A stretch of DNA of 64,000 bases from Eledone cirrhosa. Taxonomy: Eukaryota. The DNA lies in contig OZ024756.1 of the NCBI GenBank assembly GCA_964016885.1, positions 4,960,001 to 5,024,000 of the forward strand, written 5' to 3'. A program made the position numbers and the translations under genes. Shown one piece after another: positions 21,196-34,312 of the stretch. Below the pieces are notes generated by a model. The model did no database searches, was not told where the DNA came from, and saw only the letters and a list, made by a program, of their open reading frames with translations. Position 1 is the stretch's first letter. Every line of letters begins with the position of its first letter.

Positions 21196-21276
21196 CACAC
21201 GTACAAATCCAAAGAGATCTGTTTCGCCAAGAAGTCGTTGACTGAAATGAAATAGCCCATGGTTCATCAGCGTGAG
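21196..21276 (-). ncRNA. Type I hammerhead ribozyme with full stem III (family 6)
   Basis: CACG-CTGATGA-ACCA..TGGC-GAAA-CAGATC TCTTTG GATTTG-TA|CGTG. Confidence 0.85.
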
Positions 21277-21697
21277 TAAGGCTATACATTCCAGACAACT
21301 CTAAGAGAATCTAAAGCGACCGTCCAGCTACACGTGGGAGAGGGATGTCACAGCATGTTTAGGGCAGGGAACCAGTGGTGTCTGAGGGACAAGCTGCTAG
21401 AAAGGGCAGCCCAAAACCACTCAGAGAAGTGTGCTCAACCAAACAGAGAGAGGAAAGACTGTTATAAGGAGCGAAATATCACGATAAATTAACGGAGCCA
21501 TAGACTCTCGCTATTCCCTGTCAATAATATGCTCAAAGGAGAAGGAATCCTGAGCTCTCTAAAATACAATATGTTGAAAAGAGAGAGATAGTGCGCCACT
21601 GGTTCCCTGCCCTAAACACGCTGTGACATCTCTCTCCCGCGTGTAGCTGGACAGTCGCTTTAAATTCTCTTAGAGTTGTCTGAAATGTATAGCCCTG

Positions 21698-21778
21698 CAC
21701 GCGCTGATGAACCATGGGCTATTCCATTTCAGTCAACAACTTCTTGGCGAAACAGATTTCTTTGGATTTGTACGCGTG
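21698..21778 (+). ncRNA. Type I hammerhead ribozyme with full stem III (family 6)
   Basis: CACGCG-CTGATGA-ACCA..TGGC-GAAA-CAGATTT CTTT GGATTTG-TA|CGCGTG. Perfect 6-bp stem I and a GUA cleavage triplet. Confidence 0.88.
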
Positions 21779-22006
21779 TCCTATATAGTTATAGAGGTGT
21801 GTATATACATTTTAATTTATATTTTTAATTGTGTGTCTACCCTGCCTTTCATAGGTTATAGATTCTATACACTGGTGGTTTTTCCCTGTTTTATTGATGG
21901 CGCACTATCTCTCTCTAGTGTGTTACCTTAAAGAGCTCAGGATTGCTTTTCCTTTGAGCACATTATTGACAGGGAATAGCGAGAGTCTATGGCTCCCTTA
22001 ATTTAT

Positions 22007-22072
<66 letters not shown>

Positions 22073-22075
<3 letters not shown>

Positions 22076-22335
22076 CAAAGGGATATTTAATTTGTTGGTA
22101 ATTCAACAAATATATATATTTATAACAGATTCGAAGCACTCGACAAGTTTTCTGGAGTATAATATTAATGATATTAATAAATGGAAACTATGTTTATAAA
22201 ACCATATTTATTCTATTATATATATATTTCAAGGGTACCAAAACTTTGTTACGCCCTCATCAGATAAAATACAAAGTTTCTTTTATAGATGACATATCCA
22301 GGAATGAGACCTTCACGGTTCAGGTTTTACCGTTA
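22073..22335 (-). mobile_element. HHR family 1 element, colinear copy
   Basis: Contiguous homolog of 18697-18950 and 19510-19892. The 3' end abuts (TA)n. Confidence 0.8.
22209..22271 (-). ncRNA. Type I hammerhead ribozyme (family 1 variant)
   Basis: TATTTTAT-CTGATGA-GGGCGTAACAAAG..TTTTGGTACCCTT-GAAA-TATATATA-TA|ATAGAATA. Stem I pairs over 8 bp. Confidence 0.78.
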
Positions 22336-22340
22336 TATTA

Positions 22341-22414
<74 letters not shown>

Positions 22415-22608
22415 GATAAATCTACCACTCAATGGTAGGGTCTAAACCGTATAAAGAACTCAATGTAATCCGTATGTAGAAGTCGTGAAGCAAAGTTTAA
22501 AATACAAAATTTTTTATCAACGATATAATTCAATTGGATACAGAGTCAAAATAGAAATATTAAAACAATGAAATTAAACACAAAACTGTTAATTCATAGT
22601 AAAACACA

Positions 22609-22742
22609 ATATTTTACGATCGTTTCTGGGGGGTAGTTCCCTGTATGTTCATTCAATTATTGATCTATGTAAAACATATTACAAAATATCATAGTAAGAA
22701 AAATATACATACGTCTTCACTACCCGCCGTCTTCAGAAATAA
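22609..22742 (-). ncRNA. Type I minimal hammerhead ribozyme with about 100-nt stem II domain (family 7)
   Basis: TTATTT-CTGAAGA-CGGCGGGTAG..CTACCCCCCA-GAAA-C-GATC-G-TA|AAATA. Confidence 0.78.
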
Positions 22743-22744
22743 GA

Positions 22745-22883
22745 TTATTTCTGAAGACAGCGGGTAGTGAAGACGTATGTATATTTTTCTTACTATAATA
22801 TTTTGTAATATGTTTTACATAGATCAATAATTGAATGAACATACAGGGAACTACCCCTACCCCCAGAAACGATCGTAAAATAA
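22745..22883 (+). ncRNA. Type I minimal hammerhead ribozyme with about 100-nt stem II domain (family 7)
   Basis: TTATTT-CTGAAGA-..GGGTAG..CTACCC..-GAAA-C-GATC-G-TA|AAATAA. Confidence 0.78.
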
Positions 22884-22951
22884 TGTGTTTTACTATGAAT
22901 TAGCAGTTTTGTGTTTAATTTCACGGTTTTAATATTTCTCTCTCTATATAT

Positions 22952-23262
22952 AAAGTGGCTTCCTTGTTCAATCATCTTACCAGAAGCCTGACATTATTTA
23001 TGTAAGCGGACGGTACTTGATTTAGGAGCCGCAGAAACCCATATACTGGATTTTACCAACCTTCCAGGGGTCCGGGTAAATGTTCAATACCCGAATTACT
23101 TGATCGTTTTTTTGGCTATGCGAATGACTGTTTAACCATCGTCTCAGTGTGTTTGGCCTTTAACGTTTGTTATAGCTCTGGTTCATCTGAATCATCGAGC
23201 ACTTTCCTCACATCTCGGAGGTTGTTTTTCGTTATTTCGTGGGCCGAAATGCGAATCTCGAT
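22952..23262 (+). repeat. Unclassified interspersed repeat, homologous to 52235-52570 on the minus strand
   Basis: Shared blocks such as AAGTGGCTTCCTTGTTCAATCAT / AAGTGGCAGCCTTGTTCGATCAT, CCAGGGGTCCGGGTAAAT and GCCGAAATGCGAATCTCG. Both copies are TA-flanked. Confidence 0.65.
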
Positions 23263-23292
23263 AATTTATGTTTGTTTATATATATATATATC

Positions 23293-23332
<40 letters not shown>

Positions 23333-23634
23333 CGAGAGAGAAAGGGTTAGAGAACTTTATGTCAATTCTGACATCCATAGAAACAACTGGACTATCCATA
23401 TCAACCAACTTCTTCCAGAGAGAGGGGAGGTAAGAAAGAGACAGATACAGAGAGGTGGGAGTGAGAAAGAGATAGAGAGAGAGGTAGTGAGAGGGAAATA
23501 CGAAAGAATTGGTTTCGTAATGCATTTATCAACCTTACAAAGATGAAAGACTAAGTTGACGTGAGTCGGAAGAAATACTGCGAAGCTATTCTACCCAGCT
23601 CCACTAATTCGCCTGGATATCTCCACGTCACGAT

Positions 23635-23639
<5 letters not shown>

Positions 23640-23667
<28 letters not shown>

Positions 23668-23679
23668 CTGGTATGTGTG

Positions 23680-23777
<98 letters not shown>

Positions 23778-31580: not shown

Positions 31581-32389
31581 TACATTTTCTCATGACAACA
31601 ACATTAGAAAGTTCATCATCTGTTTTTTACCTTTCTGTGTTCAGTATTGTTTGTTATGCCGTGGCTGTTGAATTTGATTCCTGTTTTCACTTTCTCCAGA
31701 AACCTATCTAAATTATACATCTTTCTATCATATTTCACAAACACACTTGGGCTTCATGTCTTAGAAAGAAATAATTATTTATCTTCGGTGAATATGAGAA
31801 AATAGGAAAGAAAGCTTAGAAATCCCGGATTGATGTCATCATAATTTCATTTATCTGTCACAAATGTTTCAGATCTGGAATGAACTTTATTTTTCATCTT
31901 AAAAGATTAAAACTAATGTAATGGATGAATTATGTCACGTGTACCACAACAAAACAAAACAAAACAAAACAAAACAACAAAACAAAAAAAAAAAAACTAT
32001 TGAAGAAGCTGCAACTGATTTTGGCAAAATCGGAACATTATCATGTATATGATGGAGAGACAAAACAACCTAGTTTCAGTTCCCTGCAGTAACCAAGCCC
32101 GTTTATCTTACGCCGTTAATGTAAACATATTCAACAATACAGTTATTGTTATCACGTGGACAAGAAAAGATGTGGAAATAAAGGGAGGAAGACAAATAGA
32201 TATTGGAAATATAATTTAGATGATGATGACAAAAGACGAATATGCATCTTTAAGTTGGTGAATATATAGTCAGCTTTATACATACATATATATATATATA
32301 CAGTCAGCTTTATACATACATATATATATGCATACAGTCAGCTTTATACATACATATATATATATATATATATGCATACAGTCAGCTTT

Positions 32390-32436
<47 letters not shown>

Positions 32437-32457
32437 TACAGTCAGCTTTATACATAG

Positions 32458-32501
<44 letters not shown>

Positions 32502-32578
32502 ACACACACACATGCACATACATTCAGCTTTAAGTTAGTTGAGGAAAGGATTTTGAAAAACGAGCAAATAAGAATGTA

Positions 32579-32636
<58 letters not shown>

Positions 32637-32798
32637 TATATACATATATATGTGTGTGTGTCTATACACACACGCACACACATATAAGTTTATAAAATAT
32701 TAAAGTCACGAGGATGTCATGCTGGAAATGGATGTGTGAATGTTGAATGAACTCGTCCTAACTAAATGTAAAATGGACGATAAAGAACATAAAACAGC

Positions 32799-32832
<34 letters not shown>

Positions 32833-33110
32833 TACATGAATATATATGTGAGTGTTTATATGTATATGGATGTTTATACATGAATATATGTGTGAATGTG
32901 TTTGTGTATATGTGTGCGCTTATATGTATATGTATGTTTATTTATATATATGTGTATGTATATATATGTGTGTGTGAATGTGTGTATTTATACATATGTA
33001 TGTATATGCATATATATCACCACAATCATTTACACACACACACTCTCATATATATATATATGTGTGTGTGTCTATATGTCTATATACATATATATGTGTG
33101 TGTGTGTGTC

Positions 33111-33152
<42 letters not shown>

Positions 33153-33208
33153 AGTTTATAAAATATTAAAGCCACGAGGATGTCATGCTGGAAATGGATG
33201 TGTGAATG

Positions 33209-33259
<51 letters not shown>

Positions 33260-33661
33260 CTATATCAATAAATTCATATATGTGTGTTTCTTTTTACAGA
33301 GGGCAAAAAATATAAGTTGAAAAATATGAAGCGTTCTAAATATATTTCTGAAACGTTTTACTTTTTATTTTGACTGTGTATTCCTAGTAATGGCCTGCAA
33401 GAAAACATACTGTGTAGAATATATAGAGTATGGCAATATCTTTTAATAGTCTCACTGCTAAAGTTACTAAAGTACTGACACTACAGGCTTTATCTTAGCG
33501 AAGGTTTTATTCAATTATATTATACTCTATTTCAGGTTTCATCAGAGCTGAAGGAATATCTTCTGTCCACAGAGAGTTCGTTTCATATTAGCTTATTTAT
33601 AGCATATTTCAAAGTAGGATTCAACTTAACTGTACAGACTAATTCAAATAGTATTTGTATA

Positions 33662-33826
33662 TACTAGGGTTGGCTTAAATGTCCATAGGATGACAATGAA
33701 GCAGTGATGCTAGAGCTGTGAAATCCTGCATGCATAAATTTCAACTATTCTTATCTAATAACTGCAATGTTTTTTGGGAATTATGTTGAAAAATAGACCT
33801 CATTTGATCATACCATGAAAGTATAG

Positions 33827-33830
<4 letters not shown>
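33662..33830 (+). mobile_element. Mariner-type MITE, 3' end truncated at (TA)n
   Basis: Starts TACTAGGGTTGGCTTAAATGTCCATAGGATGAC. The body is homologous to 34706-34903. Confidence 0.6.
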
Positions 33831-33871
<41 letters not shown>

Positions 33872-33873
<2 letters not shown>

Positions 33874-34088
33874 GATATTACATAAATGGAAACTATATTT
33901 ATAAAACCATATTTATTTCATTATACATATTTCAGGGATACAACAAGTATAATGAAATAAATATGGTTTTATAAATATAGTTTCCATTTATTTAATATCG
34001 TATATCTACTCCCAAAACTTGTCGAGTGCTTTATATCAGTTATAAAATATTTACTTGTTGTATCCCAACAATTTTAAATAGAACTTGT
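33872..34088. mobile_element. HHR family 1 inverted-duplication element, ribozyme truncated
   Basis: Inverted arms at 33872-33926 and 33947-34001. The tail matches 19804-19892. Confidence 0.8.
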
Positions 34089-34089
34089 G

Positions 34090-34130
<41 letters not shown>

Positions 34131-34312
34131 ATCCCGGGTTCAATCGGGGGTAACCAGTAAGTAAGGTACTCAATACATAGCAGAGTATAAATATTTAATA
34201 TAGAAATAGCTTCTACAGGACTAGAACTGTTTCATTCGGGAGAAATCATTAGGAAGCCCATCATACTCCCGAATGAAACAGTTCTAGTCCTGTAGAAGCT
34301 ATTTCTATATTA
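34131..34312. mobile_element. HHR family 3 fold-back element
   Basis: Minus 34209-34257 reads GCTTC-CTAATGA-TTTC TCCC GAAT-GAAA-CAG..CTG-TA|GAAGC (one core mutation). The inverted arm is 34266-34311. Confidence 0.82.

Follow-up and report, generated by a model that had tools for sequence, protein, structure and literature searches.

Hammerhead ribozyme (HHR) motifs recur in a 64,000-nucleotide stretch of the Eledone cirrhosa genome (contig OZ024756.1, positions 4,960,001 to 5,024,000), referred to here as the window. We consider it probable that they belong to the terminal repeats of Penelope-like retrotransposons (PLEs), that their stem differences are inherited and likely due to selection on the fold in active source elements, and that the genomic copies decay neutrally. 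Four parts of this account are established: the motifs are associated with PLE ORFs, they fall into subfamilies, each family has one double swap, and in copies the core decays at the flank rate.

Predicted hammerheads in Penelope-like elements

Judged by sequence, these are predicted type I hammerhead motifs located in the pseudo-LTRs (pLTRs) of PLEs (Table 1). At the subfamily level, families 1, 3 and 6 possess the CUGANGA box, which is damaged in the copies at 34209 and 18686. They also possess the GAAA box, the A15.1-U16.1 pair and an NUH cut triplet (AUA in family 1, GUA in families 3 and 6), positions that were partly fixed by the search patterns. By inspection, three helices can pair around the core with helix I open, and the helix III loops are palindromic (UAUAUA, CUAG and AGAUCU, with GAGCUC in family 2). 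The G10.1-C11.1 pair is mostly absent from the three families, being U-U in family 3, mostly A-C in family 6 (G in 3 of 61 insertions) and A-U, G-U or U-U in family 1. Single-sequence energy folding of nine motifs did not recover the full hammerhead fold (z-scores +0.27 to -1.65), and an Rfam scan of the window gave no hammerhead family among the best 150 of 237 matches. Models of miRNAs and others accounted for those 150, almost all of which lay on microsatellites or palindromes, and every one was below the gathering score.

Table 1. Positions of hammerhead motifs, their remnants and related features in the window
Feature	Position	Strand	Remarks
Family 3 type I HHR motif	28750..28798	-	young subfamily; stem I GAUUC/GAAUC, loop II UAAA; intact core
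Predicted cut in the preceding motif	between 28755 and 28754	-	after GUA
Second arm of inverted insertion 28733-28865	28800..28848	+	family 3; GGAA in place of GAAA
Family 3 HHR motif, older subfamily	34209..34257	-	GCUUC/GAAGC, loop UCCC, core G5A (CUAAUGA)
Truncated second arm of the 34209 family 3 insertion	34258..34317	+	without CUGANGA
Family 6 HHR motif, A-U lineage	21191..21279	-	stem I CACG/CGUG; 3' arm 2 bases shorter
Family 6 HHR motif, G-C state	21695..21783	+	CGCG/CGCG; opposite arm of inverted repeat
Family 6 inverted repeat	21100-21378 / 21596-21873		opposite arms carry both window motifs
Family 1 minimal HHR motif	19552..19616	-	one arm of palindrome 19504-19810
Family 1 minimal HHR motif	19698..19762	+	other arm of palindrome 19504-19810; stem II from 19713
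Family 1 HHR motif, G-C stem II lineage	22209..22271	-	private change breaks one stem II pair
Family 1 HHR motif, CUGAAGA subfamily	58004..58069	+	long stem II
Decayed family 1 copy	18686..18790	-	G5A; stem II 3' side and GAAA box deleted
Family 1 fold-back remnant	33865..34008	.	without CUGANGA
Family 2 palindrome	18972..19086	.	only GAAA, stem III, GUC and stem I 3' arm; without CUGANGA
Family 2 palindrome, CGGCUG/CAGCCG variant	34316..34427	.	without CUGANGA
Family 2 single arm	53286..53338	-	without CUGANGA
5'-truncated PLE ORF	59588..61096	+	RT end, cysteine linker, C-terminal GIY-YIG-like endonuclease
Inverted repeats around the PLE ORF	58412-59743 / 61650-62932		carry HHR-like motifs
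HHR-like motifs in these repeats	59307-59339, 62054-62086	-, +

ORFs of the RT plus GIY-YIG type are followed on their own strand, after about 1.4 kb, by family 1, and an inverted copy lies upstream (loci L253-L257). Family 3 precedes the start of a PLE-type ORF by about 135 bases (L103) and is also upstream of ORFs in L120 and L148, and family 6 is found 340 bases downstream of an ORF end (L063). Cysteine linker, RT and GIY-YIG-like motifs are visible in the translations of the PLE ORFs. The ORF in the window matches, at 0.91-0.98, clusters that contain HTH_animal, GIY-YIG and RVT_1 members, GIY-YIG and RVT_1 being found in a minority of members among its language-model neighbours; a Pfam hmmscan of pieces of the PLE ORF returned no match.

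One exact family pattern has up to 24,794 (about 25,000) matches in the 3.0 Gb genome, compared with the 2,000-9,000 per genome given for PLE hammerheads in the sections of PMC4209133 used here. The majority of copies consist of nothing but pLTR sequence, 100-300 bases long. The motif fragments are short, often inverted and scattered in (TA)n tracts, and the fold-back junctions of family 3 often fall right at stem I. For the intact family 3 motif at 28750, the genome has 40 or more perfect matches over 64 bases.

Stem differences as subfamily markers

As originally predicted, the two minus-strand family 3 copies differ in stem I (GAUUC/GAAUC at 28750-28798, GCUUC/GAAGC at 34209-34257) and in the stem II loop (UAAA and UCCC). 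The family 6 arms were likewise located, CACG/CGUG at 21271-21274 and 21198-21201 on the minus strand and CGCG/CGCG at 21700 and 21773. The G5A change of the 34209 copy and the GGAA at 28800-28848 had been overlooked. The 34209 copy is likely inactive, judging from its core, and a G5A hammerhead is the inactive control in PMC4075628. CUAAUGA does not define a subfamily, as G5A is seen in 6 of the 100 copies listed, where many further core changes occur as well; an earlier excess came from the query used.

In family 3, stem I is A-U in 38, C-G in 16 and mismatched in 2 of the 56 insertions that have both letters (80 examined). The corresponding figures are A-U 35, G-C 15 and other 7 among 57 insertions for family 6 stem I (70 examined), and A-U 28, G-C 24 and other 6 among 58 for pair 5 of family 1 stem II (60 examined). 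In families 3 and 6 the stem I swap marks a subfamily and goes back to one event in a source lineage. The four families put forward as evidence are not four independent observations: families 3 and 6 are single inherited events, family 1 contributes one double swap and several G-U/A-U exchanges, and family 2, discussed below, contributes nothing. In family 1 the three distinct stem II sequences all pair as claimed. Each of them is mismatched (C-C) at the fourth pair. One pair of the 22.23k copy is broken (A-G versus C-G in relatives), and at that place the 58019 copy has an A-A mismatch common to its subfamily.

Covariation was assessed by mutual-information ranks, a tree and simulations. The covariation of the family 3 and 6 swaps does not exceed what unpaired lineage markers show. 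The stem pairs ranked 5/276, 108/1653 and 358/6801 among column pairs and were outranked by non-base-pairing pairs, so genome-wide covariation would mostly reflect subfamily structure. This is a general caution for plain covariation over transposon copies. A hand-picked family 3 alignment (n=12) has pairing in 99% of cells, with 11 of 12 pairs invariant.

Chance co-occurrence on subfamily branches could have produced the swaps with no selection on the fold. CpG transitions may have helped, as may template-switch correction of quasi-palindromes in reverse transcription, which would alter both partners together. The single event per family and the modest ranks of the stem pairs are what such an origin would give. 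The two window arms of family 6 differ by 18 substitutions in 281 columns, and the tree with stem I masked has two changes of the 5' letter, one on the backbone. Both changes of the family 6 swap are CpG-type transitions. Two private CpG decays in one arm are ruled out as the source of that swap, since many insertions share both states. In family 3, RT template switches are frequent right at stem I; its swap, however, requires two transversions, and half-changed stem I states are scattered single copies only. The family 3 swap separates the UCAC-loop subfamily from the UCAA-loop one, and these two differ at only 8 of 155 sites. Simulated for the shortest branch, the chance that any double swap occurs is 0.013 in family 3 and 0.029 in family 6; the simulations were made post hoc on families chosen because they show a swap. 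For the two window family 3 subfamilies alone it is P=0.13 (25 substitutions in 155 sites), and comparing two copies alone carries little information. Template correction, moreover, leaves unexplained why inherited core variation in two families is restricted to N7 (see below). On these grounds we regard an origin free of fold selection as improbable.

Inherited and private changes in the core

The six conserved CUGANGA positions have 0 inherited alleles and 16 rare changes, while the flanks and loop have 68 and 255, respectively (pooled Fisher P=0.049; per family P=0.31 and 0.23), with "inherited" status set by analyst-chosen copy-number thresholds. N7 has 2 inherited alleles in each of the two families. 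The low chance of a swap on short branches and the restriction of inherited core variation to N7 together give moderate support, at the level of sequence, to selection on the fold in source elements. Selection on the fold, as first proposed, is moderately supported for source retrotransposon lineages and has no support for genomic copies.

The non-canonical 10.1-11.1 pair, the folding result, the weakness of the core test in each family, the post hoc simulations, the CpG-type nature of both family 6 changes and the anole PLE, whose catalytic mutants still inserted in vitro (PMC11167929), speak against the preferred account. The constraint is also not ribozyme-specific, because between subfamilies the sequence 3' of the hammerhead is conserved as well as the hammerhead itself; in family 1 this region has 2 inherited alleles in 30 sites.

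Genomic copies decay neutrally, since their catalytic positions mutate as often as the flanks: the rare-change rates of core and flank are 1.2% versus 1.7% in family 1 and 3.3% versus 2.2% in family 6. Among the first 100 family 3 UCCC copies listed, counted by eye, a conserved position is altered in 29 and N7 in 4.

That source elements keep the fold so that proteins can bind it or the RT can recognize the pLTR, and not for cleavage, is a little less probable still than the absence of fold selection. The non-canonical 10.1-11.1 pairs and the equally conserved downstream region would suit it, as would the low in vitro activity of minimal PLE hammerheads in the sections of PMC4209133 used and the dispensability of the hammerhead for insertion in vitro in those of PMC11167929. 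However, the set of invariant positions coincides exactly with the catalytic ones, the position that varies being the spacer N7 (roles from PMC4075628), and the NUH triplet remains cleavable (GUA, AUA). Host selection keeping the genomic copies as working ribozymes is very improbable and largely refuted for the bulk of copies: many window copies do have an intact core and pairing stems, and the copy numbers are very large, but the core changes as often as the flanks, conserved positions are damaged in 29 of the 100 UCCC copies just counted, G5A, GGAA or a broken stem pair is found in individual copies of the window named above, and the intact copies are young subfamilies with many identical members.

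Under selection in source elements, the hammerhead, probably working as a dimer via the palindromic helix III, would trim the tandem transcript of the PLE so that its 5' end lies upstream of the ORF. Source elements with a broken fold would then leave few copies. Inverted pairs may result from target-primed reverse transcription off both nicked strands with early termination.

Relation to known elements and family 2

The kind of element and the pattern are already known: hammerheads occur in PLE repeats, and compensatory changes among PLE hammerhead families have been published (Cervera and De la Pena 2014, PMC4209133). Literature searches, with the supplements of PMC4209133 and PMC8557442 outside their scope, found no description of these particular families. 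Our comparisons refer to the sections of the cited papers used here. Like the hammerheads of PMC4209133, ours have type I topology, a short helix I and a palindromic helix III loop, and truncated PLEs have left many scattered copies, single or on opposite strands. They differ in mostly lacking the G10.1-C11.1 pair, which is highly conserved there (U-U, A-C or N-U here), and families 3 and 6 have, unlike the minimal hammerheads, a real helix III of at least 4 pairs. Neptune/Nematis-type EN+ PLEs (Craig et al. 2021, PMC8557442) are a candidate clade, judged by motifs; in contrast to these elements, most of our copies are pLTR-only fragments.

In the Anolis Poseidon PLE (PAc; PMC11167929) the hammerhead also lies at the pLTR-ORF junction, but the ORF begins within stem II, whereas the family 3 ATG is about 135 bases past the predicted cut. 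Cleavage of PAc has been shown and is protein-dependent; ours is predicted from sequence. Both target strands are cleaved and extended by PAc, and by analogy such a process could yield inverted pairs. Hammerhead catalytic mutants of the anole PLE left in vitro insertion unimpaired. Non-LTR retrozymes (bioRxiv 10.64898/2026.07.22.740005; PMC7229834) are similarly non-coding and PLE-related with a type I hammerhead, but they form head-to-tail tandem repeats with one hammerhead per unit, whereas our motifs are single or inverted. A retrozyme reading was ruled out, as no hammerhead lies in any tandem array of the window and the pairs are inverted.

According to PMC8557442, hammerhead function in PLEs is unclear, and hammerheads parasitizing PLEs are allowed. 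The contrast between inherited and private changes is a cheap test of the importance of the ribozyme to the PLE, and it leans towards function in source elements. It is conceivable, although rather doubtful, that the tens of thousands of datable PLE hammerhead copies suffice to show from their sequences that in vivo transposition needs cleavage. If true, this would settle whether the ribozymes serve PLEs or merely ride, in variants working without the G10.1-C11.1 pair.

In family 2 the predicted stem III letters are present, but the four shared pairs are identical and hence not compensated; with CUGANGA, the 5' arm of stem I and stem II absent from all three window elements, this family contributes no evidence of compensation. 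In the genome, 19 matches have a CUGANGA box, versus 5,696 matches to the 3' part. Neither native upstream sequence nor a link to a PLE ORF was found among the 34 arms listed, and a longer stem II or a type II order was unsupported in 19 + 30 loci. Its thousands of copies all start mid-core, which might point, with similar doubt, to a fixed 5' end of the RNA and to a non-autonomous element distinct from the others.

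Hammerhead motifs in the window and the genome

A loose CUGANGA...GAAA scan of the window gave 18 matches, several of them inside short inverted repeats with (TA)n borders; satellites and (TA)n tracts are abundant here. In the 3.0 Gb genome, exact patterns of the hammerhead families matched 24,794 times for family 3, 16,661 times for family 1 and 534 times for family 6, with 0 matches for each reversed control. The hammerhead family was absent from the best 150 of 237 Rfam matches in the window, energy folding of the motifs did not recover the full hammerhead fold, and the window's large tandem arrays contain no hammerhead motif. 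The canonical G10.1-C11.1 pair is mostly missing in these motifs.

Further features located in the window
Feature	Position	Strand	Remarks
PLE (Penelope-like retrotransposon) ORF	59588-61096		between inverted repeats with hammerhead-like motifs
Hammerhead-like motif of this PLE	59307-59339	-	four-pair stem II
Hammerhead-like motif of this PLE	62054-62086	+	four-pair stem II
Further minimal hammerhead family	20376-20416	+	CUGAGGA, CAAUUG helix III; inverted repeat 19984-20135 / 20297-20449
Its minus arm	20030-20065	-	truncated, C3G
Third inverted piece beside family-6 arms	21476-21598 / 21898-22014		
Fold-back elements adjoining TA tracts (arm identity 82-94%) or short isolated CUGAUGA...GAAA motifs (two)	20587-20884, 22553-22939, 33530-33545, 35182-35200		
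Large tandem arrays	1-17970, 24973-27868, 29702-30788, 37548-39474, 42659-43682		periods 49, 16, 50, 51 and 94
Separate dispersed repeat family, several copies	18064-18133, 53532-53601, 54404-54473, 54609-54951		unrelated to hammerheads

The original prediction held that stem base differences in four families are compensatory and reflect selection on the ribozyme fold. Its letters were confirmed for family 3, with stem I GAUUC/GAAUC and loop UAAA at 28750-28798 (-) and GCUUC/GAAGC and loop UCCC at 34209-34257 (-), and for family 6, with CACG/CGUG in one copy and CGCG/CGCG in the other. The latter family-3 copy reads CUAAUGA, a G5A change that served as inactive control in PMC4075628, and the partner arm of the former carries GGAA (at 28800). 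The two family-6 copies are opposite arms of a single inverted repeat, with 18 substitutions in 281 columns. These arms (within 21100-22014) differ in lineage state (G-C vs A-U, with a 2-base length difference), unlike most inverted pairs; possibly two RNA templates entered one insertion, or the pair is recombinant. In family 1 the three different stems II do all pair, although a private change breaks one pair in the 22.23k copy. The fourth stem II pair is a C-C mismatch in all three window copies (19713, 22231, 58019) and in nearly all sampled subfamilies; this mismatch might represent a tertiary contact or a site of protein binding.

Family 2 shows no compensation, because four pairs are the same in every copy. 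CUGANGA is absent from its window copies (18972-19086, 34316-34427, 53286-53338); genome-wide, its 3' part has 5,696 matches and the form with CUGANGA 19. All 34 examined arms start at AGUCC, preceded by unrelated sequence such as a fold-back junction or a TA tract, and thousands of copies start there (loci including L121-L139 and L383-L412). In about half of the 19 core-bearing copies CUGAWGA lies immediately 5' of GUCC and N7 follows subfamily, so the source probably had the core. GCCGUC is present twice and could form a rival hairpin that spans the GAAA box.

Linkage of stem letters and subfamily structure

Copies were taken in genome order, nearly all from contig C1, using patterns with the tested positions left free: the first 100 of 24,794 (family 3), 70 of 534 (family 6) and, for family 1, about 70 copies from the first 100 in a list of 16,661. 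We scored one arm per locus with non-homologous flanks masked and window copies added. The family-3 stem I pair was A-U in 38, C-G in 16 and mismatched in 2 (56 of 80 scorable), and that of family 6 A-U in 35, G-C in 15, A-C in 3, G-U in 3 and G-A in 1 (57 of 70). Family-1 stem II pair 5 was A-U in 28, G-C in 24 and other in 6 (58 of 60 scorable), and pair 2 A-U in 31, G-C in 21 and G-U in 6. The linkage between paired letters is real, but the swapped pairs score lower in mutual information than some column pairs without base pairing, ranking 5 of 276, 108 of 1653 and 358 of 6801 column pairs, the family-1 ranking taking in noisy flank columns.

Stem I was masked in building a tree of 56 family-6 sequences, on which the 5' letter changed 2 times, once on the backbone, and the 3' letter 9 times, mostly at tips. 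The family-3 swap falls between the UCAC-loop and UCAA-loop subfamilies, in a mapping set that includes 20 loci chosen for rare states; half-changed states are single copies only, and one copy has both changes on the older background. These positions therefore indicate one event per family.

Source elements and decay of copies

Of 155 sites, 25 differ between the two family-3 subfamilies of the window. When 25 differences are placed at random, the probability of a double swap at any of 11 pairs is 0.13; the value is 0.013 for the shortest family-3 branch (8 differences) and 0.029 for family 6 (14 differences in 240), all from post hoc simulations with the transition share fixed at two thirds. 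With changes counted as inherited at three or more copies in family 1 and four or more in family 6, and all others as rare, no inherited change and 16 rare ones fall on the six conserved CUGANGA positions of both families, against 68 and 255 in flanks plus loop (Fisher P=0.049 pooled; 0.31 and 0.23 per family). In these counts some arms from separately retrieved loci stand as separate insertions. At spacer N7 each family shows 2 inherited alleles. Most inherited stem I variants of families 1 and 6 are either G-U/A-U exchanges or the double swap. The family-3 UUUU-loop group carries an extra U in the stem I 5' arm. Two inherited alleles occur in 30 sites 3' of the family-1 hammerhead, and because this stretch is equally conserved the constraint is not hammerhead-specific. 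Selection on the fold in source elements (the active parents of genomic copies) is thus moderately supported by these sequences, and the support owes more to the core pattern than to the four examples first put forward.

In the copies the core mutates like the flanks. Rare-change rates were 1.2% in the core vs 1.7% in the flanks for family 1, and 3.3% vs 2.2% for family 6. Among the first 100 of 1,226 family-3 UCCC copies, counted by eye, 29 carried a change at a conserved position, with 33 changes over 600 sites in total; G5A was present in 6 and a changed N7 in 4. Judged from sequence, the copies arrive dead, and the bulk of them are not host-selected ribozymes. The proposed selection is moderately supported for source elements and does not hold for copies.

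Penelope-like elements and inverted pairs

ORFs with RT motifs, a cysteine linker and a GIY-YIG-like end lie about 1.4 kb upstream of family 1, with an inverted family-1 copy upstream of them. A PLE-type ORF starts about 135 bases after family 3 in locus L103, and an ORF ends 340 bases before family 6 in L063. Clusters matched by the window PLE protein include HTH_animal, GIY-YIG and RVT_1 members, and Pfam scans of the protein gave no match. The cut triplet of the flanking motifs is not clearly NUH. The arrangement of motif and ORF is that given for Neptune/Nematis-type elements in PMC8557442, a likeness of layout. No account of these particular families was found in searches of published main texts.

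The motifs lie in pLTRs (pseudo-LTRs), and where these are in tandem the motif is 5' of the ORF. The two arms of an inverted pair usually agree in subfamily state: the loop was the same in 32 of 37 family-3 pairs, none of which straddles the stem I split, and core plus stem II were identical in 15 of 17 family-1 pairs. In the mechanism we propose, the NUH site would be cleaved in a tandem PLE transcript, probably with the palindromic helix III pairing in a dimer, as PMC4209133 proposes. For family 3, reverse transcription primed in (TA)n would begin about 85 bases beyond the predicted cut, and frequent halting near the hammerhead would leave inverted fragments. PMC11167929 describes, in a related element, extension of both strands with internal initiation, and insertion in vitro without hammerhead cleavage. 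In family-3 pairs (L095, L146, L152 and others) the arms reach about 85 vs about 15-20 bases beyond the predicted cut, a constant difference that resembles the PLE 'tail'.
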